DNA of 64,000 nt, from positions 6,944,001-7,008,000 of the forward strand of contig CM030332.1 in the NCBI GenBank assembly GCA_017654855.1, written 5' to 3'. This stretch comes from Podospora anserina. Its lineage: Eukaryota. Each line of letters starts with the position of its first letter. Position 1 is the stretch's first letter. This document shows positions 13,667-54,813 of this stretch, piece after piece. Both the position numbers and the translations under genes were made by a program. A model generated the notes under the pieces. That model was not told the DNA's origin, did no database searches, and was given only the letters and a program-made list of their open reading frames with translations.

Positions 13667-14992
13667 CTACAAATCCCCGGCCTCGTCTCTGTCCACATAC
13701 CTCTCCAGCCTAGCCTTCAACTCCTCAACCTCAATATCCTTGTCGTCATCCTCCCCAGCATGTCCGTGATGCCCATGAGGCGGAATCAAAACCTTCCCCA
13801 CCACTTGCACAACACCATCGCTGGCAATCCCGTCCTGGAAGATCACCTTGGTGAACCCATTCAGCACAATACTGACCCACCCCTTCCACCTCTTGACGTC
13901 AACCGCGATTGCCTTGTCGTCCAGCAGCGTCTCCAGATCCACATGCCAATACTTTCCGCCCTCTGCATCTTCCACAGCAGCCTTCTCGTCCTTGTGACGA
14001 TTGTAAAAGGCATCGCTGTAGAGGGTCTGGTCGACGACAAAGTGGTACTTGAGCAGTGCCTCGAGGTACTTCAACCCGTGATGGGAGAACAAGAAGGCGT
14101 TGGCGCGGGGGCCGAGACGTCGCCAGGCCGAGTTGGTTGGTGCGAAAAGGGTGCCGCCTTTGTGGTCTGGGACGGAGAGTTCGGTCTTTTCCAGACCGAG
14201 GGAGAAGGTGCTGAAGGTGTTGGGCAGCAGGGAGATGATCTTCTCCTGGGAAGGGGGTGGGATGAGGATGTGGTCAATGGCGTGGATGATGCCGTTTTTG
14301 GCGAGGATGTTGCCGTAGACGATTTTGGAGATGACGTTGACCCTGATGGAGAACAGCAGCCCGGTTGAGATCCTCAGCCGCTGGGGGCGGGAGCCGAGGG
14401 TGTCGAGCGACAGATTGGAGGGCAGGGTGTGCTTGTGGTAAAGATCGACCTTGGTGTGCAGGCCGGGGGCGATGTGGTATTTCAACAGGGCCAGAACGAA
14501 CTCCTTGGGGGGAGGCTTGTCGCCGTGGTGGGGGATGCGCTCAAAGGCTTTGTCGGTAGGGACGAAAAGGGTCTTGTTGTGGGAGGTGGAGTCGAGGAGG
14601 TCCTTGATGTCGGAGAAGTCATCGTTGTCAAGGAGGGAGGCGAACTTGGTGGTGTACTTGTTGGATTTTATCAACTCGTAGATGGTCTTGGTCTTGTCGC
14701 CACGGTGGGGCTTACGCTCGTGAAGAGGCAGAGGGGGTAAGTTGCTGTCACTGTTGAAGCCGTCGAAGCCGTCGAAGCCGTCGAAGGAGTAGCCGTCGAA
14801 TTCGCTGCTGGCCTTTTCGATGCGTTTCTCGATCTTGGTAAAGATCTTGGCCGAGCGGGAGACGGTGGAATCCCACCAGGTTTGTACCAAATCTGGAGAG
14901 ACGGCGGGTTGTTGCTCGTCAAGCTTAATTGCCTGATCAGGGGCAACCAGAGCGGCTGCGGTAGCCGCAAAGAGAACGGTTAGATGCTTCAT
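13667..14992 (-). CDS. Secreted fasciclin (two FAS1 domains), ~441 aa, intronless
   Basis: Signal peptide MKHLTVLFAATAAALVA. FAS1 H1 motifs TLFVPTDKAF and TLFAPTNSAW, LLKYH twice, H2 motifs NGIIHAIDHIL and DGVVQVVGKVL. Confidence 0.92.
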   Translation of the reverse strand: MKHLTVLFAATAAALVAPDQAIKLDEQQPAVSPDLVQTWWDSTVSRSAKIFTKIEKRIEKASSEFDGYSFDGFDGFDGFNSDSNLPPLPLHERKPHRGDKTKTIYELIKSNKYTTKFASLLDNDDFSDIKDLLDSTSHNKTLFVPTDKAFERIPHHGDKPPPKEFVLALLKYHIAPGLHTKVDLYHKHTLPSNLSLDTLGSRPQRLRISTGLLFSIRVNVISKIVYGNILAKNGIIHAIDHILIPPPSQEKIISLLPNTFSTFSLGLEKTELSVPDHKGGTLFAPTNSAWRRLGPRANAFLFSHHGLKYLEALLKYHFVVDQTLYSDAFYNRHKDEKAAVEDAEGGKYWHVDLETLLDDKAIAVDVKRWKGWVSIVLNGFTKVIFQDGIASDGVVQVVGKVLIPPHGHHGHAGEDDDKDIEVEELKARLERYVDRDEAGDL

Positions 14993-16771
14993 GGTCACCA
15001 AGCCCCAGAGCGAGACTATTCCGGATCAGTTTTCAAAGACGAGAACTAGATCTCTCAAGGGAAACTAGGCTCCCCAACTCAGGTTTCCATCTCAGGTTCC
15101 TTCTCAGACTTGTTATACCTGATGGTGGGACGCGCGGACATACAGGCATCCCATCTCCCCATCTCCCCATAACCCCCAATAACGGCGTCATCTGTCGATT
15201 CGGCTCAACTGATTGGCTGCCCACCCCGCAGTTTGAATCGAGAGCCGTTTCGATCCGTCCTCATCGGGATGCTTTGTTCAAGCTTCCTCAATCGTTAGAC
15301 CAAACCTTGTAAAGGTCCCATCTCATGTTCCGCGTATTGCTTATTTGGTATGGCGAACTGTTGGGCAACTGCGTCATTGTCTTGTCACCGAACTTGCTCT
15401 CATTCCGCCAACGGAACAGCGGACAGCACTGAGCCATCCATCATTGACTTGGGAGTGTTCACCTTGGCTGCCAACTTTCGAGGTCGGGCATTCCGTATGC
15501 CCCGAGATCCGATTGCTGCATGTCTGTGGTCGTCCATGTCAACCTGTTTGCGTCGGCGGAAAGGAACCGTTGGTCTTGGATGCCTGTCTATCATTTATGG
15601 AGGGTGGGATTGCTCTCCATGTGTGATAGAGCTCTTCCCCGCATAAGAGGGCTGAGCTTCCATCTTGAAATGTAACGACACAGCAAAAGCTTCAATGCCC
15701 ACATGTGCATCTTTTGATATGCCAGGCATATACCGAGCTATCACACAGCCGGAGAGGCCGGTCTCGCACGTAGGACAGCATGTGTGTCAAGAGATGGCAT
15801 TACTGATGCCTGCCACTCATGATCAGCCAAAGTATTCTTAGAGATATAGATATGTTGAGAAGCCACAGCTGTAACAATGCAAGGTCACAAAGATACCCAG
15901 TTGCCGAGGGTGGATCGAAAGCTAGCACAGCCTCCGGAGCTGCCAACGTCTACGCTTGTTTCAAGTCGGCGCTTGGTACCAGACTGCCGGGTTCTATCAT
16001 TTGTGTTGATGACTTCAAGTGGGGCATCGCCCTCGAAGAATATCTGAGGTGTGAGGTGTAAAAGCTTGGCCTGCTCGTTGTCCACCATGGCTGAGGCACG
16101 GCACGGTGGCGGGGAGGATTGGGAAGAGGGAGCCGGGGGAGGGAGAGGCCACCGGTTTGTCCAGTCAGAATCCTGGAAATCGGTATCTCACCTGCCACAG
16201 CATCCCAAGTCGACGTCCCATCCACCAGTCCCAGAAGGGGTAGGGGTCTCGCTCGCTAACGAGGTCGCTGTTCGTGAGGCTGAAGCGATTAATCTTAAGG
16301 CCCCAAACTGCTGGAGAGCGCGCTGGGCATTTCCACAGTGACCCGACGTGATTTCCGCCTCTTCCATCTGTTCATCCCATTCTGCTCACTTACCAACAGG
16401 TCTTCTCAACTCAACTCATCATCGCATCTCTCTCAATCTCAACATGGCCGTTCTCATGAGTTCTGCTGCCTGACGTTAGCCCAGCCCCCGACACCCATTG
16501 GATCCCTCTTCTTTTTTCTCTCTCAATTCTCACCGAGGAATCTTTTTTTGTTGCAAGGAAGCGTGCTCGTGCTGGTCTTTCATGGTTTTGTCGGGTGCTC
16601 CGTGGTGCTAGCACAGCCTCGCCCATTGTGGGACACAACGCACCGTGGCTTGGACACTCCCTTTCAACGACACGTCGAATTGATTTCTTTACCCGGCGAC
16701 GGCCTCTTTTTCGCTCACCGGCATTTTGCGCATCCGTAAACCAGCGATTGACCGCTCACCGTCTCTGCATC

Positions 16772-19141
16772 ATGCCGGTTTTTGCGGAGCGTTCGGTGCT
16801 CGCCGCCAGGTCGACATCGCCGCTCTCTGCCGGTGCCATTGCGGGGGCAGTGGTAGGATCAGTGGTGGGAGTCCTCATTATCCTGCTCTGCATCTTTCCC
16901 TTTGCAAGACGGCGATGGGTCAACCGTCATGATGAAAACACCTTGGCAGAGATGGGGCAGAGCCCCGGAGGCCCCAACTTCACTCATCCTGATGACGATT
17001 CTACCAAAAAGTATTCAAAGGATCACCTAGTTCCTGGCTCCGATAGTCAAGCTGGCACCGCTCACGAACAACCCGCACACGGCATACCAGATATCAACGG
17101 CCAGAATACATCACCAACAAAGACCAGCTTGGATCAGCTTCCCTCTCAGCCAGCCCTCCCGCAAGGCGTTTCTCTTGACCAAGGTCTCCCGTCGCCCATC
17201 TCGCCATCTGCTTCGCCGTCACCCCGGTCCGAGTCCTTCCCCGGCCAGGCCCAAACTGGAGGCCAGGCAGTATCTTCACCGGCAGCCGGTCCGATCCGCT
17301 CACCAACGAGTGCCTCGTCAAAGTCACGTTCCGCTTCAAAAGGCACCACCGGCAAGGACAGCACACGCCAGTTGAACTTTGACTCTTCGTTCGCTTCGCC
17401 AAGTCGTCAGGGCACTTTTAGCAACATCGTCGAGGAGCCCGAGTCTTTTGAGCCCCCTTCGCAACGCTCCACTTTCCGAGAGAAACTCACTAGTATCTTC
17501 CGGACTTCATCTGGCGAGGGACGTCGGGACAGCAAGCGATCTACCGGCACCCGCTCGTCTTCTGTTCTCACAGGCGATATTCTTGCCTACCAGGAGCCGA
17601 TACCAGGACAACCCGTCGGCCAACCTATTATCGAGGAGCACCATCCCGACCCGAGTGGTCTCAACTGGGGCTATTATAACGACCCGACTCTCCCACCAGG
17701 TAGTGACGCCCTTCCCCAAGGAACGGACCTTTCCCAGTTCAGCGAACCAGTTATTTACACGGAACCAGGAACCTTTACTACCATCCCCAACCCCGCAGAC
17801 TTGACCTTTGTGCCGCCAGCGACTTACGCTTCAGCCTCGGTCTTGCCTAACCCAGTGTCGCCAAGTCAACATCCATTCCCTGGACTTGGACTCGACATCA
17901 CTTCACCTGACGGTGACCAGACTGTCACGCCTATCAACCCACTGCATAGTTTCAGCCAGCGGAATAAAGTTCCAGGGCCACTCCAGCGTGTCGATAGTCT
18001 GCCTCCACCCACCATCGTGTCGGATATCCCGAGTCCCCCGTTCAGCTATACTGCCGGCCCCAGCGGCAACCCTATGGACTTTATGAACCCCACGAATCAG
18101 GTCGAGAGCGCTTGGATGGTCGAACAGGAGATTCTCAAGGCCGAGAACTCGCCATCACCCCCAGCCCCTTCACCGCCAACTGACACCTTCCCACCAACAA
18201 TGGCCCAGGAGCCTCAGCTGCAGTATATCGACCAGAACCACCAGGTCCAGTACATCAACGGAGCTGGCCTGTCACCAGAACCAGAGTATAACTTTGGCCA
18301 GCAAAGCCTTGGCCAGCAGAACCTTGGCCAGCAAAATATTGGCCAACAGAGCCTCAACCTGAACCAGCAAAGCTTTGGTGAACAAAGCTATCAGTCCCCA
18401 CCATATCAGCCTTCATACCAGCAGACGCCAGAGATGGGATTGGTGCAAGATTTTGGCGTTCCATTAGGTTACTACGACGGTAACGGCACCGTGATTCAAG
18501 ATTACTCGACGCCACCACCGTCAGGTCCATCACTTCCCTCGACCGTCCAAAACACCCCTGACACACGCCTCACTGCGTACACGGCATCCCCATCACCGCC
18601 ATCCGAACTCGACCCCCACAATGGAATGTACCTCAACGTCTCTCCCATCCCATCACCAGGCCAGTCCCCACATCCATCATCGACCCTTTCTCCAGGGCTC
18701 TCGGCCCCGTCACCAGCCACACCGGCGGGGTTATCACCCGGGGGACAAGAGAAGGCCTTTGCCTGCAACAAGTGTGATCGCATCTTTGATCAGATCCACA
18801 AGCTCAAGTATGTTCCCATCTCATCCTCTCCTGCAGGCCCGTGTTCTAACACATACACCAGTCACCACAAACGCTACCACGACCGACCGCATGAGTGCCC
18901 ACACGCAGGCTGCACCATGAGATTCGGCACCAAGACCCATCTAGACAGGCACATCAACGACAAGCACTTCAAAACCCGCAAGTTTTACTGCACCGTCCAC
19001 GACTGCCCTTACTCGAAGCAAGGGGGCAAGTCATTCCCACGCAAGGACAACTGGAGGAGACACATGGTCAACAAGCACCAGCTTACACCAACAACGGATC
19101 CCGAGCCGGAGTTTATCGATGAGATGATGGTTGGTGTATAA
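16772..19141 (+). CDS. C2H2 zinc-finger protein (3 fingers) with an N-terminal single transmembrane helix. Exons 16772-18807, 18862-19141; ~771 aa
   Basis: After removing a 54-nt GTATGT...CTAAC...CAG intron: CNKC...HKRYH, CPHAGC...HINDKH and CTVHDC...FPRKDNWRRHMVNKH. Hydrophobic segment GAIAGAVVGSVVGVLIILLCIFPF followed by RRR at aa 21-48. Confidence 0.9.
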   Translation: MPVFAERSVLAARSTSPLSAGAIAGAVVGSVVGVLIILLCIFPFARRRWVNRHDENTLAEMGQSPGGPNFTHPDDDSTKKYSKDHLVPGSDSQAGTAHEQPAHGIPDINGQNTSPTKTSLDQLPSQPALPQGVSLDQGLPSPISPSASPSPRSESFPGQAQTGGQAVSSPAAGPIRSPTSASSKSRSASKGTTGKDSTRQLNFDSSFASPSRQGTFSNIVEEPESFEPPSQRSTFREKLTSIFRTSSGEGRRDSKRSTGTRSSSVLTGDILAYQEPIPGQPVGQPIIEEHHPDPSGLNWGYYNDPTLPPGSDALPQGTDLSQFSEPVIYTEPGTFTTIPNPADLTFVPPATYASASVLPNPVSPSQHPFPGLGLDITSPDGDQTVTPINPLHSFSQRNKVPGPLQRVDSLPPPTIVSDIPSPPFSYTAGPSGNPMDFMNPTNQVESAWMVEQEILKAENSPSPPAPSPPTDTFPPTMAQEPQLQYIDQNHQVQYINGAGLSPEPEYNFGQQSLGQQNLGQQNIGQQSLNLNQQSFGEQSYQSPPYQPSYQQTPEMGLVQDFGVPLGYYDGNGTVIQDYSTPPPSGPSLPSTVQNTPDTRLTAYTASPSPPSELDPHNGMYLNVSPIPSPGQSPHPSSTLSPGLSAPSPATPAGLSPGGQEKAFACNKCDRIFDQIHKLKYVPISSSPAGPCSNTYTSHHKRYHDRPHECPHAGCTMRFGTKTHLDRHINDKHFKTRKFYCTVHDCPYSKQGGKSFPRKDNWRRHMVNKHQLTPTTDPEPEFIDEMMVGV

Positions 19142-19349
19142 TCAACTTTGAAGAAAAAGGGGGGAGCGGGTGGGGGGAATTTATGGCGAGGAGTGCGGAA
19201 CATTCCTCGCAAAGGAAACGTTCGTTTATACCCAACATGGAGGAACAAAATCCAGGAGATACTGGTTTAAAAGCAGGCCATCTATGTTTTTTTCCGGAAG
19301 GGTGGAATTTTTTTCGGGTGATATCAAGCGGGCATTGAAAGCGTTTCAA

Positions 19350-19353
<4 letters not shown>

Positions 19354-19426
<73 letters not shown>
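19354..19426. repeat. (CT)n microsatellite, ~36 units, between the convergent 3' ends
   Basis: Perfect dinucleotide run visible in the sequence. Confidence 0.98.
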
Positions 19427-19428
<2 letters not shown>

Positions 19429-19811
19429 ATATGGAAGACAGGACATAGCATTTCTCTTGCTTTGTTTTTGTACATGTATTTTCGATTTTTTTTTGGGGAT
19501 CAGCGAAAAAGTCATGGAAGGGCTCCTGGCTTGATTTTGATGTTTTTTTTTTTTAGTTCGTAACCCTAGATTTAATAGGGGTAACGACTTTGAAATGGAA
19601 ACGCGCTATACGCGCGGCATTACTTCCGCTTTTTGGTGAGTGTTGATGACCTTTTCTGTCTCGTGTGCGTTACTGATGTGACATGCCTGCACCTGCTCAG
19701 CCATCCATCCAAGCTTTATTTTCGAGTCGTTTGATCTCTTGAAGATCGAACATTACTTTGGTCGTATTGGTATCATCATCTCACACATCTCTCCTCTCCA
19801 ACTTATCCCCC

Positions 19812-42584: not shown

Positions 42585-45500
42585 ATGCGGAACCGGACGG
42601 GACAGGCCATTCTGGCCGTGCTCCTGACCATATTGAGTTTTGCGGGCATCACCGATGGACAAGCCTACTATGGCACAGTACAACGTGAGTTACAAGCCTG
42701 CGGTTCTGACAACTTTATCAATCTAGGATGCTTCAAGAACTTCATCTCCGTCGCCCAGCCGACATATTTCCAGTTCGATCCGCAGGGCTATCTGCCGTCA
42801 GATCCCTCAAGGAGTTTTCCAGGATGGAGTCCCGGCTCCAACTACAACAACACCGCTACCGGTCTTGACTGTGCCCGAGCCTGTCGTGGTTTCGGGTACA
42901 AGTTTGCCGCCATGAGAGATAACTCCTGCAGATGCGGTATCCAGCTACCTGTGGGATACAGCCCAACGCAAGATGCAGTCTGCCAGATTCCCTGCCAGGG
43001 CAACCCCAATCAGACCTGCGGTGGCGGCTCAGACGCTCAAATCTACGTCGACCCTTCCTTTGCTGCAAACTCGCAGGTGCCGATTCAAGCGCAAAACCCG
43101 TACATTGCAGGGTTTTACAACTACTTGGGCTGCTTCTATCTCCCGAGTGGCATGCCCTCGGGTGACAGCCGTGCCACTTTCACCGTCCCCACGGTCGACG
43201 AGTGTTGGAACAGATGTGCTGGCCTGGGTTATCCCCTCGTGGCAGGCGTGGTAGATTCGTATGGACCAGGTCGTCTTGCCTTGAAAAGAGGAGAGCTAAC
43301 ATGAACTCAGCGGTTCAACTCGATGCTTTTGCGGAACCACGTTTGGCTTTCCTTCATTTCGAGCTAGACCAGAACTCCTCCCTGTCCCTGGAGACTGCAA
43401 CACAACATGTACATCACTTGGGGGGTAAGCAAACCCCCAACAGTTCAGGGAAGGTGGCCTTAGGGATTACCGAGTTAACAAGATGTATCATAGTACCAAC
43501 GGCAACTGCGATATTGCCACCGGGAGGTGTTGCGGCCGGGGACCGTATATGCCTGTCTATATCAACCCCGAGCTCCAGGGTTGCTACTCACCGATCATCC
43601 CGGGCTTTAAGGCAACGCAAGCTGAGCCAGACTATGAGTGTTTTGATCCCCCAACCAGTCTCCTGGGTCCCCCGAAGGTTCTGGCGCAGCCAAGTTATCC
43701 CTCCAGTTTAATCATCAACACCGGACCAGCTCTGATTCGACCTCCTTCGGTCTCAGCAGGTCAGCGTGTTTATCTGATCAACGGCTGCTACGGAAGCAGC
43801 GTATTTGGTACGGGTGGCGGAACGGCGGTCTTCAACTCGGCTCTTTCTCTCACGAGATTGAACATCAGTCCTGCAACACTGGAGAACTGTGCAAGCATTT
43901 GCAACGCAGGCAATTATGACGCGATGGGCATGGTCAACGGGAGGGACTGCTACTGCTCCCCAACCGTGAATAGCGGTCTCACATTCGACAATATGGGATT
44001 CTGTAGGGTTCCATGCGGGGATGCCAACAACATTGCTTGCGGTGCCCCGAACAGTCCGGTAGTTTACGCTGTCAATGGAGGGGGCGTGTTCTCGTCCTAT
44101 GTGTCAACCCAAATTGTTACCCCTTATCCAACCTACAACTGCCTTGGCCGAGCCACCTCCTTTACGACGACAAGCACAACCACAACTTCCACCACAACTT
44201 CTATTCAGACCAGTACATCGACTACCACCACAACTACAACGTCTACCTCTACCTCTACATCGGCCACAGCCACCACCACCGGCACGACTACCTCAACCTC
44301 TACCTCCACATCCACAACAACCACGACGACTAGCACTACCACCACAGCCACATCCACCTCCACCTCAAGTACTACAACCACATCCACGTCCACCACTAGC
44401 ACTACCACAACTGGCACGTCCACCACGAGCACAACCACCACAGGGACCTCAACGACTAGTACCACCACCACCGGCACAAGCACGTCGACAAGTCTGACGA
44501 CGACCAGTTCAACATCTACTAGTCTAACGACCACAACCACGACTTCAACTTCCACAAGTCTGACCACGACGAGTTCCACCTCCACGGATCTCACAACGAC
44601 GACCACTACAACGACATCCAGTTCTACATCTACGAGTCTAACCACAACCACCACCACAACAACGTCTAGTTCTACATCCACCAGTCTAACCACAACAAGT
44701 TCCACATCGACAGATCTCACAACGACAACCACAACAACGAGTTCAACATCTACGGATCTGACAACCACCAGTACAACCAGCACTTCCACGAGTCTAACGA
44801 CCACCACTACCACAACCAGCTCGACGTCTACAAGTCTCACAACGACGAGTACGACTAGCACTTCGACAAGTCTAACAACGACTAGTTCTACTTCTACAGA
44901 TCTGACAACAACCACCACAACCACAACCTCAAGCTCAACATCTACAAGCCTTACCACTACAAGCACAACCAGCACTTCCACAAGTCTGACAACGACTAGT
45001 TCAACCTCGACAGATCTGACGACAGCAACCACCACCACAACAACCAGTTCAACGTCCACAAGCCTTACAACAACGAGCACGACTAGCACATCCACAAGTC
45101 TAACGACAACTAGCTCAACCGCCACTGATCTGACTACGACAACTACGACAACAACCTCCAGTTCAACATCTACAAGTCTGACGACGACCAGTACAACGAG
45201 CACCTCTACCAGTCTTACAACCACTAGTTCAACCTCGACAGATCTCACGACTACCACCACAACCAGCACTTCAACATCCAGCACCACTACAGACACTACC
45301 ACAACCACAACCAGCACCTCAACAAGCAGTACCACAACCACGGGGACAGAAACGACGAGCACAACGACGTCCACAACAACTACAACGACAAGCACATCAA
45401 CAAGCAGTACTACAACCACGGAGACAGAAACGACGAGCACAACAACCGACACAACCACCACAACTACAAGCACCTCCACCAGTATTTCCACAACGAGCAC

Positions 45501-48500
45501 CACGACGACAGGCACATCCACGTCCAGCACCACAACTGATACAACAACAACCACGACAAGCACTTCAACGAGTCTTTCCACAACGACCTCCACATCAACA
45601 AGTATCTCAACAACCAGCACTACCACTACGGGCACGTCAACGTCGAGTACGACCACAGAGACGACAACGACATCTACATCAACAAGTATCTCAACAACCA
45701 GCACCACTACCACAGATACTTCCACCTCAAGTACAACCACAACCGAAACATCAACAACGAGCACCACCACCACTGGCACTTCCACATCAAGCACCACCAC
45801 TGAAACCACAACAACGAGTACATCAACAAGTATTTCAACCACGAGTACCACTACCACGGGAACGTCTACCTCAAGTACTACCACTGAGACTACAACGACG
45901 TCTACATCAACAAGCATCTCGACAACCAGCACCACCACCACAGGAACAGAGACTTCCAGTACGACAACAACCGGCACATCGACAACCAGTACCACTACTA
46001 CCGGGACGTCCACATCAAGTACAACGACAGAGACAACAAGCACAAGTACAAGTATTTCGACTACGAGCACCACTACCACCGGAACCTCGACAACAAGCAC
46101 AACAGCCACGGAGACTTCTACTTCAACAACCAGCACAACAACCACCGGAACATCAACCACAAGCACGACCACCACGTCGACGTCAACGTCAAGTACCACG
46201 ACCACAGGCACATCCACGTCAAGTACAACCACAGAAACTACAACCACAACCACATCTACATCCACATCAACGAGTTTGACGACGACTAGTTCAACATCAA
46301 CTAGCCTCACAACCACAAGCTCCACATCTACCAGTCTCACAACAACCACAACAACCAGCACATCAACCAGCCTCACAGAGACAACCACCTCAAGCACCTC
46401 GACCAGCTTGACCACAACAACCAGCACATCAACTAGCCTAACAGAGACAACTACCTTAAGCACCTCTACAAGCTTAACCACAACTAGCTCAACATCCACA
46501 AGCTTAACTACAACGAGCTCCACATCCACAAGCTTAACAACCACAAGCTCTACATCAACTAGCCTTACGACTACTACTACGACAAGTACGTCAACAAGTC
46601 TGACCGAGACAACGACAAGCTCCACATCCACCAGCCTTACGACGACTACTACAACAAGCACATCAACAAGTCTGACCGAGACAACCACGAGCTCCACATC
46701 CACCAGTCTCACAACCACTACAACCACGAGCACGTCAACAAGTCTGACCGAGACAACCACGAGCTCCACGTCCACCAGCCTTACAACGACAAGCTCCACG
46801 TCCACAAGCCTAACCACAACAAGCTCGACTTCCACCAGTCTTACAACAACCACCACAACCAGCACCTCGACTGACCTAACAACCACGAGCTCGACATCCA
46901 CCAGCCTCACAACCACTAGCTCTACCTCTACAAGCCTTACAACTACTGATTCAACTTCCACGAGCTTGACAACTACCAGTTCTACATCAACCAGCTTGAC
47001 CACGACCACCACGACTGAGACTTCGACAACAAGCACCACTTCCACAGATATCTCCACCACAAGCACCACCACAACTGGCACGTCGACCTCGAGCACAACC
47101 ACGGAGACAACAACCACAACTACGAGCACATCAACAAGTCTCACAACTACCAGCTCCACTTCCACCAGTCTCACCACAACGACTACGAGCTCCACTTCCA
47201 CAGATGTTTCTACTACAAGCACTACCACTACCGAGACTTCCACTTCGAGCACAACCACAGAGACAACAACCACAACTACAAGCACATCGATAAGTCTCAC
47301 AACTACTAGCTCCACTTCTACCAGTCTTACCACGACAACTACGAGCTCCACTTCCACAGACATTTCCACGACCAGTACCACCACCACGGGGACCTCAACC
47401 TCGAGTACTACAACTCAGACAACGACGACGACAACAGCGACATCCACTAGCTCCACAACAACAACAGAAACATCGACAACCAGCACCACAACCACAAGTG
47501 TCTCTACAAGCAGTTCTACAACCACTGAAACCTCAACCTCAAGCACTACAACAACCGGGACAGAAACAACTAGTACTACAACAACTGGCACATCAACAAC
47601 AAGCACTACAACAACATCAACTTCAATAAGCCAGACCACTTCGACAAGCAGCACCACAACCACAGGGACAGAAACAACGAGTACAACAACCACATCTACA
47701 ACCACATCAACCTTTACATCGATAAGTGAGACCACTTCTACCAGCAGTATTACAACGACTGGCACATCGACAACGTCAACGACAACCACATCAACCTCCA
47801 CCTCCACCTCAATCAGCGAGACCACTTCCACAAGCAGTACCACCACAACAGACACATCAACAACATCAACAACCACAACATCAACTTCCATTTCCGCTAC
47901 CAGCACAACCACTACTGGCACATCAACCACATCAACAACAACTACTTCAACTTCAACTTCCACCTCTACATCAATTAGCCAGACCACATCTACCAGTAGC
48001 ACCACCACAACTGGCACATCAACAACGTCAACAACAACTACGTCCACTTCTACCAGCAGTGTTACCACCACTGGGACAGAGACCTCGAGCACTACTACCA
48101 CAACAACATCAACATCAACATCTGTGCGCGAGACCACGTCTACGAGCAGCACTACAACAACAGGCACTTCAACAACAAGTACTACAACTACATCGACGTC
48201 AACATCAACATCTGTCAGCCAGACCACGTCGACTAGCAGTACAACCACCACTGGCACATCCACAACAAGCACAACAACTACCACAACATCTACATCAGTC
48301 AGCGAAACCACGTCAACAAGCAGCACAACAACCACTGGCACCTCAACAACTGATACGACGACGACGTCAACTTCGACTTCAACCTCAGTGAGTGAGACCA
48401 CATCAACAAGCAGCACTACGACTACTGGAACCTCAACCACAAGCACTACCACAACGTCCACGTCTACCTCTGTCAGTCAAACAACGTCAACGAGTAGCAC

Positions 48501-51500
48501 AACAACCACAGGGACAGAAACGACGAGTACAACAACCACCTCTACTTCCACCTCTGTGAGCGAGACCACTTCAACAAGCAGCACAACAACCACAGGGACT
48601 TCCACAACCAGCACCACAACCACATCTACTTCCACCTCTGTGAGCGAGATCACTTCAACAAGTAGCACCACAACCACTGGCACCTCCACAACCAGCACTA
48701 CAACCACGTCCACATCTGTAAGCCAGACCACATCGACAAGCAGCACCACCACCACGGGCACAGAAACTACAAGTACTACAACCACATCTACTTCAGTCAG
48801 CCAAACGACTTCAACAAGCTCTACCACCACAACCGGGACGTCAACCACGAGCACAACTACAACAAGCACTTCCACGTCTATTAGTCAAACAACGTCCACG
48901 AGCTCCACCACCACAACTGGCACGTCAACATCAAGTACGACAACGACTGGGACGTCAACGACAAGTACGACGACTACTGAAACGTCAACCACAAGCACAA
49001 CTACAACATCCACATCTACATCAGTGAGCGAGACTACCTCCACAAGTTCAACAACTACCACGGGGACATCTACCACAAGCACAACCACCACTTCCACATC
49101 TACCTCTACGTCCACATCAATTACCCAGACGACCTCGACAAGCTCGACGACTACAACCGGAACAGAGACCACAAGCACAACTACTACCGGAACGTCCACT
49201 TCAAGCACAACTACTACCGGCACGTCAACTTCAAGCACAACGACTAGCACCACGACTACTGGCACCTCCACAACCAGTACCACAACCACAGGCACGTCGA
49301 CGTCAAGCACCACGACTACTGACACTTCCACAACCTCCACAACAACTACTGATACGTCAACGACAAGCACAACCACAACGGGCACTTCCACAACCAGTAC
49401 CACCACCACAGGCACGTCCACTTCAAGCACAACGACTACTGACACTTCGACAACCTCAACGACTACTACCGGGACATCAACCACCAGTACCACCAGTACC
49501 TCGACTTCAGTAACCGAAACCATTTCCACAAGCTCAACTACTACCACAGGGACGTCAACGACAAGCACCACAACCACAACCACGTCAACATCAGTTAGTG
49601 GGACAACCTCAACAAGCTCAACTACAACCACTGGGACTTCAACAACATCAACAACAACAACCGGCGTATCGACGAGCTCAACCACCACCACAGGAACTTC
49701 GACTACTTCAACGACAACAACCGACACAAGCAGCACAACAACCACAGGCACGTCAACGACTTCAACTACAACGACTGGCACGTCAACTAGCTCAACTACC
49801 ACTACCGGGACTTCAACCACGTCAACAACAACCTCGACGACTACCACTGGTACTTCAACAACCTCAACCACCACAACCGGGATTTCAACAACGTCAAGCA
49901 CAACAACCGGGACTTCAACTACATCAACAACGACTACTGACACTTTCACCACCGAGACCACCGAGACTTCGACCACGTTAACAACCACTACCGGAACTTC
50001 GACCACATCAACAACCACGTCGACGACTACTACAGGCACTTCAACTACGTCAACTACCACCACTGGCACTTTGACAACTTCAACGACAACAACCGGCACT
50101 TCGACCACGTCAACCACCACCACCGGCACTTCAACCACATCAACAACCGAGATTTCAACTACCTCAACAGCCACAACCGAGACGTCAACTACATCAACCA
50201 CAACAACCGGAACTTCTACCACGTCAACCACCGGTACTTCAACTACATCGACAACTACAACCGGGACTTCGACTACCTCCACCACTGCCACCGACACGTT
50301 GACAAGCTCAACAACAACAACTGGCACTTCGACCACGTCAACAACTACTTCCACGACAACCACCGGGACGTCGACCACTTCAACTACAACCACTAGTACG
50401 TCAACGACGTCAACGACCACTACTGGGACGTCAACCACATCAACGACCACCACTGGGACGTCGACGAGCTCAACCACCACCACCGGGACATCAACAACAT
50501 CAACGACTACAACTGGCACGTCGACAAGCTCAACGACCACAACCGGCACCGAGACATCTTCAACAACAACCACTGGCACTTCAACGACTTCCACAACTAC
50601 CACTGGCACGTCAACCAGTTCCACGACTACGTCGACGACAACTACAGGCACATCTACAACGTCTACAACAACTACCGGTACGGAAACGACCTCGACAACC
50701 ACCTCCACAACAACCACCGGCACATCTACCACTTCCACGACGACAACCGGCACGGAGACCAGCTCTACAACCACCACCGGCACGTCCACGAGCTCGACCA
50801 CTACTACCGGCACTTCAACAACTTCAACGACTACCACTGGCACCTCAACGACGTCCACAACCACCACCGGTACATCCACAAGTTTGACTACGACAACCAG
50901 CACAGGCACTTCAACTACCTCGACGACTACGTCAACGACGACTACCGGCACATCTACAACATCTACAACAACTACCGGTACATCAACAAGCTCAACCACA
51001 ACCACGGGCACGTCCACAACTTCGACGACTACCACTGACACCTCCACAACGTCCACCACGACCACAGGCACGTCAACAACATCAACAACAACCACTGGTA
51101 CATCAACAAGCTCTACCACAGCCACTTCCACAACATCGACTACAACTACAGGCACTTCAACGACTTCGACGATCACGACTGGCACATCCACGAGCTCAAC
51201 CACGACAACTACCACTGGCACTGAGACAACGTCGACCACCACGAGCGGCACTGAGACAAGCTCAACCACCACAACCACCACCGGCACGTCCACGAGCTCA
51301 ACCACCACCACTGGTACTTCGACCACCTCGACTACCACCACTGGCACATCAACAAGCTCAACGACTACCACAACCACCTCGACGTCTGTGACTGAGACCA
51401 CTTCAACGAGCAGCACGACTACCACTGGCACGTCGACGAGCTCAACCACCACTACTGGCACCGAGACAACTTCCACTACCACCACCGGCACGTCAACAAG

Positions 51501-54500
51501 CAGTACTACAACCACGACAACTTCGGTATCAACGAGCAGCACGACGACGACGGGGACATCGACAACCAGTACGACAACTACCGGCACCTCGACAAGTAGC
51601 ACGACGACGACAGGGACGTCGACTTCCAGTACCACGACAACCACCACCTCCACGTCCACCTCTGTCAGTCGAACCACCACAACGAGCAGCACTACGACTA
51701 CCGGCACGGCGACGTCAAGCACCACCACAACCACCACATCCACGAGCCAAACCACGTCAACAAGCAGCACCACCACCACCGGGACGGCAACATCTAGCAC
51801 TACGACGACGACAACGTCTACGTCCACCTCGCTCAGCCAAACCACTTCCACATCCACCGAGACAACCACGTCAACCACCACCTCCTCGGCAACGGTGATC
51901 AGGGTTACGATCGCAACAACCAGCAGCACGTCAACAAGCGTCTCCACGACGAGCACCACATCGACCGTCTCCACAACAACCACGGCAACGAGCACAAGCA
52001 GTACGACGACCACTGGCACATCAACAACCTCGACCACCACCACCCAGGCCAGCACAACAACCACGGGCACAACGACGATTTCAACCACGCTCACCTCGGC
52101 CAGCACCACAACAACGGGGACATCCACCAGCAGTACCACCACCACTGGCACGGCAACTACGAGCACAACCACCACGAACACGTCAACCAGCTCGACGACC
52201 ACCACAGAAACCACCACGTCCTCCGCTACCGTCATCAGAGTCACCATCAGCGGTAGCACTTCCACCAGCGTCTCAACAACCAGCACCACGTCCACCTTTT
52301 CCACCACGACGTCCACCACGGCAAGAAGCACAACAAGCACCACGTCCACCTTCTCCACCACAACGTCCACGACTGCCACCAGTACAAGCAGCACAACTAC
52401 CACTGGCACCGCCACGACGTCCACAACCACCACCAGCACGCAGACTTCCACGACGACAAACACGGCGACAACTTCGACGACGACGACAAGCACAACTAGC
52501 ACCACTACCACTGGCACGTCAACCACGTCGACTACCCTCACCCAAGCGAGCACCACTACCACGGGTACGTCGACGACGACGACAACAACAACAAGCACCA
52601 GCTCCAGCTCCGTCTCCGTCTTCAGAGTGACTATCATCTCCACAAGCAGCACCACAACGGAGACATCCACCACGCGGACGACGTCCACATTGTCGACATC
52701 AACAACGGTCATCAGCACATCCAGCACCACAACTACCGGCACCGCAACGACGTCGACGACCGCCACCAGCACATCCAGCACAACAACCACTGGCACGGCG
52801 ACGACCTCAACAACCACCACCGTGCCTAGCACAACCACAACTGGCACCTCCACCATCTCAACAACCATCACTTCAGCCAGCACAACCACAACCGGCACCT
52901 CGACCTCCCTGACCGCAACAACTAGCACATCCAGCTCCACTACGACAACCATTTCCACATCCACCTCGTCGACAACTACAACCGGCACATCCAGCACCAC
53001 CACCACAACTTCCGCGGTATGTCCCCCCTGAACGCCCCCTGAGCCCCCTCTTTTTCGCCTGTGAAACTAACACATGATCCAGACCACCTCAACAACCAAC
53101 ACCATCACCTCCACCTCCACTGTCTCCATCTTCCGCGTTTCCATCCTCTCCTCCTCCACCACCACAACCTCAACCCGCACAACACTAGTAGATTTCACCA
53201 CCACTCGCACAACAACTGTCGACCTCACAGTCAATGGCGCCGCCCGTCAAGCCTCCGCCGCCGTCTCGCAGGCCCAAGCTGGACGTCAACAAGGCGAGGC
53301 CATCATCGTCGAGATTGACGTCTCTGGCACAAGCGTGGGTATTGTTTCTGCTACAACAACAGGAAGCGTCATGGTTTCCATCTCTGGCACCACCGTACCA
53401 GTGGTTATCACGGCAGCGTCAGTGTTTGCCAGTCAGAGAAGCGCAAGCAGTGCCAGTGTGCGCAGTGCGTCACTTGCGAGCGCGAGCAGGGCGAGCGTCG
53501 CTTCTGTGGCGAGTGTGAGCAGTGCAAGCAGGGCGAGTTTCTTGAGCGCAGCTGGGATAGGGGGCAATGATGTGATTACGGCTGCGGCGGTTTTCAGTGC
53601 TCTGAGAGCAGAGAGTTCGGCAAGGGCCGCGTCCGCCTCTTCAGCTTCGGCTTCGGCTTCGGCTTCGGCTTCGAGGGCGGCAGCAGCAGGGAGACTGCCA
53701 TTGAGTGGACAAGCTATTGGAGTCGGACCTGTGTCCGCTTCGATTGATGTCGGAGTGGGCGCTTTGCCGGTTTCTGCTTCGGTGAACGTTGGTGCTGGAG
53801 GACCGGCTGGTTCTCCCAGCTCGAGCACTTCAAGCTCTGTGACTCCTGTGCGAGCCGGAGCCGGAGCACCAGGCCAAGCGTCCATTTCTGTTTCCCAAGG
53901 CAGAGTTAGCTCACGCTCTTCAGCCACATCCAGTTCAACAACACCACCAGCAAGAGTACCACTCGGTCTCGGCGGTACGTCCGGCCGCTTCACCATCCCC
54001 GCCCAACAACAAGGAATCAGCATGCCCGTCAGCTCAGTTTCCTCCTCATCATCCTCATCCACCGCCCGAGCAGCCCGCCAACAAGGCGGAGCAGCAGGCG
54101 GCATCGTAACAGAAGCTCCCACCACTGTGGCCCCAGCTAGAGCCATCTCATCCGCCTCTGCCACTCCCTCCATCGTAGGAAAGGGCAAGGGATCTGGCGT
54201 GGCAGGAGGGATCGTTGTAGATCCCGACACTCCTGTTGTCAACATCAATACCAACAACGACAACACCAATAACGTCGAGTCAGACTTTGGGGGTGAATTC
54301 GTCCCGGGGGGCGGAGAGGAAGAAGGCACTGGTTTTGGAGCGAGAACCGGGGGAGAATCCGACTTTGGAGCAGAGTTTGTTCCCGGGGGCGGTGAAGAGG
54401 GCATTGTATTTTCTGGAGATGGTCTCACTTCCGACTCCCGCGTCGAGACGGGCTCTGAATTCGGTAACGAGTTTATTCCCAACGGCGGCAGAGATGAAGG

Positions 54501-54813
54501 CACCATCACCTCGGATGATTCCACTACGTCTGAGTCCCTCTTCGGCAGTGAATTCATCCCCAACGGCGGCGAAGAAGAAGGGGCATTTATCGCATCCCCT
54601 AACAACCGGCGGGTCGATAATGTCAATGGGCAGGAAGACGATGGCGGCAGGGTAGAGAAGAGACAAGGCCAAAACGACCCAGTCATTGTTGTCGTTACCG
54701 CTACCGCTACGGATAAGGTAACTGCCACGGCAGAGACGGATGTCACGGCTACGGCGACGGCGACGGCGACAGTTAGGGCGAGGTTTAGGGGCGTGAGGGA
54801 TTATGTTCTTTAA
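42585..54813 (+). CDS. Giant secreted WSC-domain, Thr/Ser-rich mucin-like protein. Exons 42585-43258, 43311-43424, 43494-53016, 53083-54813; 12042 nt, ~4013 aa
   Basis: Signal peptide MRNRTGQAILAVLLTILSFAGITDG. Three WSC-like Cys modules (LGCF..CARAC..CRCG..CQIPCQGNPNQTCGG; YLGCF..CWNRC..CFCG..CNTTC; GCY..CASIC..CYCS..CRVPCGD..ACG). About 9 kb of Thr/Ser codons. All three introns are canonical and the summed exon length is divisible by 3. Confidence 0.88.
44155..53220 (+). repeat. Coding low-complexity Thr/Ser repeat array (~3000 codons)
   Basis: Continuous ACN/TCN/AGY codons with recurring units such as TSTSLTTTSS, TSVSETTSTSSTTTTG and TTTGTSTTS. Confidence 0.95.

Follow-up and report, generated by a model that had tools for sequence, protein, structure and literature searches.

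In several membrane-bound transcription factors, such as SREBP (Sre1/SrbA), Spt23/Mga2, ATF6 and the plant NTL and bZIP factors, a transmembrane (TM) segment and a DNA-binding domain on the cytosolic side reside in one protein. Most of these are bHLH, IPT, bZIP or NAC factors in which the DNA-binding domain precedes the anchor; those of fungi serve, to our knowledge, lipid and oxygen sensing at the endoplasmic reticulum (ER). Fungal C2H2 factors activated by proteases are also known (PacC/Rim101, Stp1/Stp2, SltA/Ace1), and are not known to have a TM segment of their own. Among the titles and abstract openings that our searches of the open-access literature brought up, none describes a fungal C2H2 factor carrying such a segment itself. 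Here we analyse a gene of Podospora anserina located in a window of 64,000 nucleotides (contig CM030332.1 of assembly GCA_017654855.1, positions 6,944,001 to 7,008,000 of the forward strand; all coordinates below are those of this window). Its open reading frame (ORF), 16772-19141, encodes an N-terminal hydrophobic helix and three C-terminal C2H2 zinc fingers, which are conserved together and encoded by one mRNA. We lean slightly towards the reading that the product is a dormant membrane-anchored C2H2 transcription factor, with its N-terminus outside and its C-terminus inside (N-out/C-in), which would become active after proteolytic release.

Three other types of protein offer points of comparison. 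The Mid2, Wsc and Msb2 sensors are single-pass proteins with a signal peptide and a glycosylated ectodomain, and without DNA-binding domain. Notch is an N-out/C-in receptor with a convertase-type site outside the membrane, and Nrf1/NFE2L1 has an N-terminal anchor and a C-terminal part acting in the nucleus.

Results

One mRNA encodes the TM helix and the zinc fingers

The ORF (+ strand) runs over 789 codons without a stop. Finger 1 is split by a 54-nt, in-frame and stop-free GT..AG intron, so that the spliced protein counts 771 and not 789 amino acids. This intron was spliced in all four sequencing runs, coming from four studies and taken as RNA by inference, not from their records.

16369 to 16771, + strand: transcribed 5' leader, about 400 nt, from contig starts
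16444 to 16473, + strand: upstream ORF (uORF) 1, 9 codons, good start context
16582 to 16611, + strand: uORF 2, 9 codons
16772 to 18807, + strand: coding exon 1, with stub, TM helix, linker and first half of finger 1; no constitutive intron
16832 to 16906, + strand: single TM helix, G21-A45, zipper glycines 21/25/29/33
16907 to 16915, + strand: basic stop-transfer cluster RRR, residues 46-48
about 17700 to 17768, + strand: minor in-frame 69-nt skip (GT..AG), seen in two of the four runs, losing 23 linker codons
18764 to 18880, + strand: C2H2 finger 1, residues 665-685, split by the intron
18808 to 18861, + strand: intron, 54 nt, GTATGT..CTAAC..CAG
18862 to 19141, + strand: coding exon 2, with the rest of finger 1, fingers 2 and 3 and the stop
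18896 to 18967, + strand: C2H2 finger 2, residues 691-714
18989 to 19078, + strand: C2H2 finger 3, residues 722-751, with a C-to-H spacing of 18 residues

In two of the four runs, single contigs reach from 16369 or 16385 through the helix to 19345, which places leader, helix and fingers on one mRNA. Together with the spliced intron, this demonstrates that the architecture is not a gene-model fusion. A preliminary description of the locus had concluded the same from the lack of any intron between the helix and the start of finger 1; the contigs agree, apart from the minor 69-nt skip, which sits within the linker and leaves the connection between helix and fingers unaffected. The three C-terminal fingers of that description are likewise recovered once the intron is spliced out.

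One could also suppose that a soluble isoform is the working factor, made from a downstream start codon, from a downstream promoter or by splicing that skips the helix, the TM form being a minor or storage product. The two uORFs and the in-frame Met61, in good context, could permit re-initiation, a few database models omit part of the helix (P0008, P0047, P0072, P0075), and the finger cassette works without TM in the six-finger chimeras described below. Rare forms are moreover dropped from RNA contigs, whose ends cannot define a transcription start site. Nevertheless, the main contigs start at 16238, 16369, 16385 and 16389 in the four runs, all upstream of the ATG and none only downstream of 16915, and all contain leader and helix; no joint deleting the helix was found in these runs. 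No consensus 5' splice site lies within 16361-17000, and the first Met after the helix has no fixed position (its median distance from G25 is 76.5 residues, with an interquartile range of 41-142, and 57 of 170 proteins have it near Met61). The contigs, the lack of a splice donor near the helix and the unconserved Met all weaken this reading, which we hold to be very unlikely.

The helix is conserved together with the fingers

A search with the finger region only returned 199 matches, and the following figures rest on the best 120 of these 199 (119 besides the query). An N-terminal TM helix was present in 105 of the 119 relatives; nine had none, and five were six-finger chimeras. Of the nine TM-less models, seven have a first residue that falls, on alignment, inside a relative with the helix and not at its start; one has a model gap in the helix, and one is partial and lacks a start. 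We also performed a check free of gene models, on 80 metagenome loci fetched by finger patterns only. Twenty-four of them adjoined RRP40 or fasciclin, the neighbours of the gene in P. anserina: 14 (11 distinct) had the helix in the frame of the finger 1 start, stop-free, eight were ended by the contig end, and two fell outside the finger 2 pattern, one of them with a TM helix. Where syntenic loci had sufficient upstream sequence, the helix was thus present in 14 out of 14. The 56 non-syntenic loci comprised five with the helix, eight without it despite enough upstream DNA, 19 that were too short and 24 outside the pattern. Orthologs keep both helix and fingers, both among the matches listed and in raw DNA. 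Over 60 aligned orthologs, column identity was 0.62 in the helix and 0.77 in the fingers, against 0.19-0.30 in the linker outside its conserved islands.

Many database models of relatives stop at the finger 1 intron, after the first half of finger 1, so that the family is often annotated without its fingers.

The protein is predicted to be inserted N-out/C-in

The preliminary description had noticed a hydrophobic helix with glycines 21, 25, 29 and 33, followed by RRR, and this holds: the best 19-residue Kyte-Doolittle window reaches 2.87, a value attained by none of 2000 shuffles of the protein, and nothing exceeds 0.75 past residue 60, which leaves G21-A45 as the sole hydrophobic segment. G21 is conserved in 97% and G33 in 77% of 104 members, G25 serving as anchor of the alignment. 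The N-terminal stub is some 17-21 amino acids long in most members, and longer N-termini are mostly without hydrophobic core. In the AlphaFold2 model of a close relative, P0004, only the helix (20-56), a short module (436-461) and the fingers are confident (mean predicted local distance difference test (pLDDT) 51.7, predicted template modelling score 0.34).

A cytosolic C-terminus, as had been proposed, is supported at the level of prediction by the distribution of charges: net charge rises from a mean of +1.4 over the 15 residues preceding the helix to a mean of +4.2 following it, and it is higher after than before in 97 of 104 members. Past the helix, glycosylation sequons are depleted (383, against 489 ± 18; 161 proteins). 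The median length of the uncharged span is 26 residues across the family, which is typical of late Golgi and plasma membrane proteins. Charge bias, sequon depletion and span length all fit an N-out/C-in anchor without signal peptide, the finger domain being predicted in the cytosol.

A long disordered linker and three near-invariant fingers

16916 to 18763, + strand: disordered Pro/Ser/Gln-rich linker, about 619 amino acids from the end of the helix to finger 1
18068 to 18139, + strand: conserved NPMD module, residues 433-456, a predicted helix pair
18500 to 18568, + strand: conserved Ser/Thr-Pro cluster, residues 577-599

The preliminary description gave some 630 disordered Pro/Ser/Gln residues here. 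Disorder and composition stand (pLDDT mostly below 50 in the P0004 model; Pro, Ser and Gln make up 37.5% of the linker), and the length has to be corrected to 619 amino acids. The NPMD module gave no match in PDB sequence and fold searches. Distant Helotiales relatives keep it as an NPxD-type motif, together with the fingers.

The Ser/Thr-Pro cluster is a probable set of kinase sites. A Cdc4/Fbw7-type TPPxS degron was considered and rejected as a family feature, the strict TPPx[ST] form being found in only 26 of the 104 members that have the block. The cluster bears on the possibility that the protein is a degradation-gated factor of the Nrf1/NFE2L1 type, whose anchor would feed constant ER-linked degradation, a clipped form surviving to act only under an overload of extraction or of the proteasome; the membrane would then be a sink and not a sensor. 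An N-terminal anchor combined with a C-terminal DNA-binding domain, an early and transient induction (see below) and the cluster itself, as a possible degron, speak for such a scheme. Yet besides the scarcity of the strict degron, charge bias and sequon depletion place the bulk of the protein in the cytosol, unlike the lumenal Nrf1, and the Golgi-type motif of the stub would be left unexplained. We consider this scheme quite improbable.

In the fingers, the base-contact residues (helix positions -1, 2, 3 and 6) are the same in 108 of 124 sequences for finger 1, 123 of 124 for finger 2 and 124 of 124 for finger 3. Pfam zf-C2H2 families match 53-54 of 60 members, and PDB sequence and fold searches return generic C2H2 arrays, mostly DNA-binding, with TFIIIA among the structural matches. 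By sequence and by modelled fold, the region thus has what characterizes a three-finger C2H2 transcription factor, and DNA binding is predicted. From the C2H2 recognition code, the expected target would have a GAG-GGN core, which resembles the Crz1 site. C2H2 arrays, TFIIIA included, can also bind RNA, and the protein might be a membrane scaffold with RNA- or protein-binding fingers, or a ubiquitin-ligase adaptor, in keeping with a knockout without phenotype (see below). The near-invariance of canonical base-contact positions and the predominance of DNA-binding arrays among structural matches argue against such roles, and that of an Rsp5 adaptor was rejected, since PY motifs are depleted (6 of 60 members, against 19 ± 4 in shuffled sequences). 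Of all the readings envisaged, a function other than transcription factor seems to us the least credible.

The N-terminal stub has a Kex2-type motif

16790 to 16810, + strand: stub motif R7-S-V-L-A-A-R13, a putative Kex2-type LxxR cleavage site

Stubs were compared in 151 proteins, i.e. 170 anchored TM proteins minus 16 with a stub shorter than 12 residues and three with no Arg in the segment searched; four unanchored distant proteins were excluded. A hydrophobic-x-x-R motif was found in 147 of the 151, against 42 ± 5 in shuffled stubs and 6.5% of linker windows. After removal of similar stubs, it was found in 45 of 49 distinct stubs, for 13.7 ± 2.9 expected. The Arg usually precedes G21 by 5-7 residues, and the residue three positions upstream of it is aliphatic. 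Classic dibasic KR/RR sites occur in 29 of the 151 stubs. The extended Kex2 motif consists of a P1 Arg and an aliphatic P4 (KR and RR are also used), and Kex2 acts in the late Golgi (PMC8528282). By its P1 Arg and aliphatic P4, the stub sequence matches that of a Kex2 substrate, and trimming is predicted.

Residues 7-10 of the stub (16790-16801) read RSVL, and the Arg at this place is kept in 56% of the 151 stubs. We take RSVL to be the site-1 protease site of SREBP-2, and know of no site-1 protease in ascomycetes; its presence here may be due to chance, or it may be a second Kex2-type site.

Identity of the gene and spread of the family

13667 to 14992, - strand: fasciclin-domain gene, divergent, matching Pa_1_18870/NCU00695
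19812 to 20618, - strand: RRP40, matching Pa_1_18890/NCU00693
21490 to 23312, + strand: Hsp70 gene SSZ1, matching Pa_1_18900/NCU00692

With a Pal1 gene upstream, the order around the locus is Pal1, fasciclin, C2H2, RRP40, SSZ1. In the supplement of PMC3689799, the order is Pa_1_18870 (fasciclin, NCU00695), Pa_1_18880 (zf-C2H2, NCU00694), Pa_1_18890 (RRP40, NCU00693) and Pa_1_18900 (SSZ1, NCU00692); NCU00692 is named ssz-1 in PMC12790415. Because gene order agrees, the zinc-finger gene is treated here, by synteny, as the ortholog of Podospora Pa_1_18880 and Neurospora NCU00694. The N. crassa protein P0030 has the same TM helix and fingers. In its supplement row, Pa_1_18880 is annotated only as a zf-C2H2 protein, with a blank SignalP column and no TM mention (PMC3689799), and the passages found that mention Pa_1_18880 or NCU00694 say nothing of a membrane anchor.

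Among the matches listed, the closest named proteins are those of Cercophora samala, Triangularia setosa and Apiosordaria backusii (83-84% over the finger region). From the species names of the matches, which we presume to belong to Sordariales, Glomerellales, Xylariales/Amphisphaeriales, Diaporthales, Ophiostomatales, Microascales, Coniochaetales and Calosphaeriales, the family covers at least eight Sordariomycete orders, plant pathogens included. No Aspergillus member was returned by the homology searches with the family; a legend in the supplement of PMC6709928 deals with Pa_1_18880 and one other factor and restricts their orthologs to N. crassa alone or to N. crassa plus A. nidulans, in a passage that does not say which applies to which factor. 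The Atlas search gave only unnamed Ascomycota C2H2 clusters for the whole protein, and no match at 0.9 or above for residues 1-70. Some database entries of the family are automatically named 'ace1', and the ACE1 cluster is only a weak structural match (TM-score, the template modelling score, 0.17). An unconfirmed candidate for the ortholog in M. oryzae is MGG_00504, which has C2H2 fingers and is targeted directly by MoCRZ1.

The three-finger cassette of the family is also contained in TM-less five- or six-finger proteins (P0038, P0054, P0103, P0116, P0123, P0127, P0174, P0194). In a finger tree of 104 columns only, with unsettled bootstrap, P0038 groups with P0004 and P0007 (support 95/90), and P0103, P0116, P0127 and P0174 fall inside the Xylariales clade (96/98). 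Since several multi-finger proteins thus group next to the TM ortholog of their own lineage, another family may have acquired the cassette repeatedly. Two distant relatives, P0217 and P0253, have ubiquitin-like domains fused to the same finger type, and P0217 also has an N-terminal hydrophobic segment.

Two further observations concern the surroundings of the gene. Between the zinc-finger gene and RRP40, the 3' region contains a (CT)n microsatellite (19346-19437, about 90 nt), at which RNA contigs break. Farther away, a very large secreted mucin-like gene (42585-54813), whose N-terminal WSC domain precedes a Thr/Ser-rich frame of 3182 codons and a further frame of 579 codons, accounts for the strong skew in GC and AT between 44 and 54 kb.

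Induction of the gene and a Crz1-type element upstream

Pa_1_18880 is induced during incompatibility, 5.22-fold at 30 min and then 1.65-, 1.33-, 1.34- and 1.22-fold, and NCU00694 is 26.14-fold up in N. crassa incompatibility. The fasciclin neighbour is co-induced (11.62-fold in P. anserina, 2.42-fold in N. crassa), and in 2013 Pa_1_18880 was named a prime candidate for early regulator of incompatibility; its expression cluster is given as H in the text and E in the supplement row (all in PMC3689799). The gene is furthermore activated 3.29-fold by the mating-type factor FPR1 (PMC3125171), 8.37-fold down in delta-PaRid crosses (PMC6709928), and listed as Pa_1_18880/NCU00694 with C2H2 genes in a nitric-oxide scavenging study (PMC10607626). 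The NCU00694 knockout was included in a cold-shock screen (PMC5940138).

15926 to 15934, + strand: further CACAGCCTC copy, in the upstream region common to this gene and the divergent fasciclin gene
16612 to 16620, + strand: conserved CACAGCCTC element, fitting MoCRZ1 CAC[AT]GCC; its reverse strand fits yeast GAGGCTG
16645 to 16650, + strand: second conserved element, GTGGCT, also calcineurin-response-like

Motif definitions for MoCRZ1 and yeast are those of PMC2873923. The exact 9-mer CACAGCCTC was found at -122 to -246 from the ATG in 12 of 15 loci, this window included, and CAC[AT]GCC in 11 of 14 upstream regions (2.4 ± 1.4 in shuffled regions; 28% window background), counts that are not independent, as the loci compared are related. 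GTGGCT occurs in either orientation in 11 of the 14 regions, for a background of 20% of 600-nt windows. In the 64-kb window, CACAGCCTC has five copies for 0.76 expected, and two of the five are upstream of the zinc-finger ORF. In incompatibility data, the gene is co-induced with Pa_3_1720/NCU07952, which we take to be crz-1. Because the upstream motif is that of MoCRZ1 and yeast, and because of this co-induction, a calcium/calcineurin input to the gene is likely. One published account calls NCU07952 vsd-9.

CACAGCC is found at 15744, 15926 and 16612 in the region between the fasciclin and zinc-finger genes (13667-16771). Given these copies and the co-induction of fasciclin, this may be a bidirectional region controlled by Crz1. 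Two more CACAGCCTC copies lie near the start of the window, at 126-134 and 601-609, beside a casein kinase I-like frame, possibly another Crz1-type target. In the leader, uORFs of 7-11 codons recur in several relatives (L029, L016, L019, L031, L008), 190-290 nt 5' of the start codon, at about -200 to -290 for those resembling uORF 2, with similar sequence in five; this suggests a conserved translational control. The leader shows no enrichment of the Ssd1/GUL-1 motif, with 2 copies as compared with 110 in the whole window. The NCU00694 mRNA is bound by GUL-1, which carries little weight, as 1,048-2,628 mRNAs are bound.

Discussion

A possible course of events, and what weighs against it

The combination of a TM helix with C2H2 fingers is real and conserved, and has apparently been overlooked. 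The Kex2-type stub motif, the near-invariant base contacts and the Crz1-type element CACAGCCTC upstream are new here. Building on the observed architecture, conservation and induction and on the predicted topology, we infer trafficking, trimming, release and targets, and propose four steps in order of falling confidence. First, and with most confidence, the protein would be inserted N-out/C-in, with its short stub outside and its fingers in the cytosol. Second, it would travel onward to the late Golgi or the plasma membrane, and Kex2 would trim the stub after R13. Third, calcium, calcineurin and Crz1 would switch the gene on upon membrane or wall damage. Fourth, a further cleavage, within the glycine-rich helix or directly on its inner side, or processing of the ubiquitin/Cdc48/proteasome type, would free the finger-bearing part, which would enter the nucleus as a second-wave regulator.

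Several points weigh against this scheme. Counts of the stub motif and of the upstream element come from related sequences and do not represent independent events, and LxxR-like stubs are perhaps common ahead of fungal N-terminal TM helices. The hydrophobic helix is present in some distant Helotiales relatives and absent from others. The CACAGCCTC element at 16612 falls within the transcribed leader, where it could act as RNA or be bound by the zinc-finger factor itself. Pa_1_18880 is unchanged on challenge with two bacteria (PMC4835503), and in standard assays the NCU00694 knockout grows and develops normally, both asexually and sexually (PMC5592922). A germling phosphoproteome contains no phosphopeptide of NCU00694 (PMC4238974), so that the protein was not detected there. 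In the literature searched, we found no data on localisation, cleavage or DNA binding of the protein, and the alignment of 60 orthologs reveals no evident cleavage motif conserved on the cytosolic side.

The last point, together with the fact that no processed form is reported in the literature searched, leads to the main rival of the release scheme: the protein might stay uncut at the inner nuclear membrane, its fingers reaching DNA through the long flexible linker, and regulate or position loci at the nuclear rim. Its logic would be like that of bacterial ToxR, and its transport route like that of yeast Heh2. The disordered linker is long enough for DNA contact, and in metagenome loci with the family helix, some 490-670 amino acids lie between it and finger 1. 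The long TM span and the conserved Kex2-type motif nevertheless point beyond the ER and nuclear envelope, and we regard tethering in place as unlikely.

Release from the membrane thus remains the reading that we prefer. A more specific form of it is a Notch-like fungal relay, in which sensor and transcription factor would be one protein: an N-out C2H2 factor of the plasma membrane, induced by calcium and Crz1, primed by Kex2, and released by intramembrane or juxtamembrane cleavage upon a breach of membrane or wall, as in non-self fusion, the glycine zipper being the sensing or gating element. In all its details, this is tentative, and we would sooner expect some part of it to fail.

Comparison with known systems

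In Arabidopsis, 60.3% of the membrane-bound factors have a C-terminal and 23.8% an N-terminal anchor (PMC9237531). The zinc-finger protein can provisionally, on its sequence features, be counted among membrane-bound transcription factors. It differs from the SREBP-type ones by an anchor that is N-terminal, by a C2H2 domain, and by the some 620 amino acids between the two; a feature shared with such factors is that the basic motif of the lumenal stub could give a priming cut. Membership in the SREBP or Spt23-Mga2 families was rejected, Pfam detecting only C2H2 families and weak TM-like matches.

The preliminary description had likened the protein to the Mid2/Wsc/Msb2 sensors. As far as the look of the helix goes, this stands: a small-residue-rich LSxGAIAG helix, a basic stop and a cytosolic C-terminus are shared. 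Membership among these sensors was rejected, as the stub has about 20 amino acids, there is neither signal peptide nor large ectodomain, and none of 60 members matches Mid2/Wsc/SKG6-type Pfam families. With PacC/Rim101, Stp1/Stp2 and SltA/Ace1, the protein shares C2H2 fingers and, if the scheme proposed here holds, the logic of a latent precursor and a membrane-linked activation. The yeast C2H2 factor Com2 is not described as membrane-bound in the passages on it in bioRxiv 10.64898/2026.02.20.707110. With Notch and Nrf1/NFE2L1, the P. anserina protein shares an N-terminal or N-out anchor and a C-terminal part acting, as would be the case here, in the nucleus, and with Notch also a putative convertase-type site outside the membrane; it has no ligand-binding ectodomain, and Pfam and PDB sequence and fold searches reveal no sequence relation to either.

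The gene occurs in two genetic model fungi, and a knockout exists. How membrane damage triggered by fusion leads to transcription is an open question which Pa_1_18880/NCU00694 makes approachable, and the architecture is linked in a testable way to non-self cell death and calcium signalling. In its orientation, the family is opposite to the fungal membrane-bound factors known to us, and its DNA-binding domain is unlike theirs; if release is true, this suggests a little-studied signal route from membrane to nucleus in moulds.

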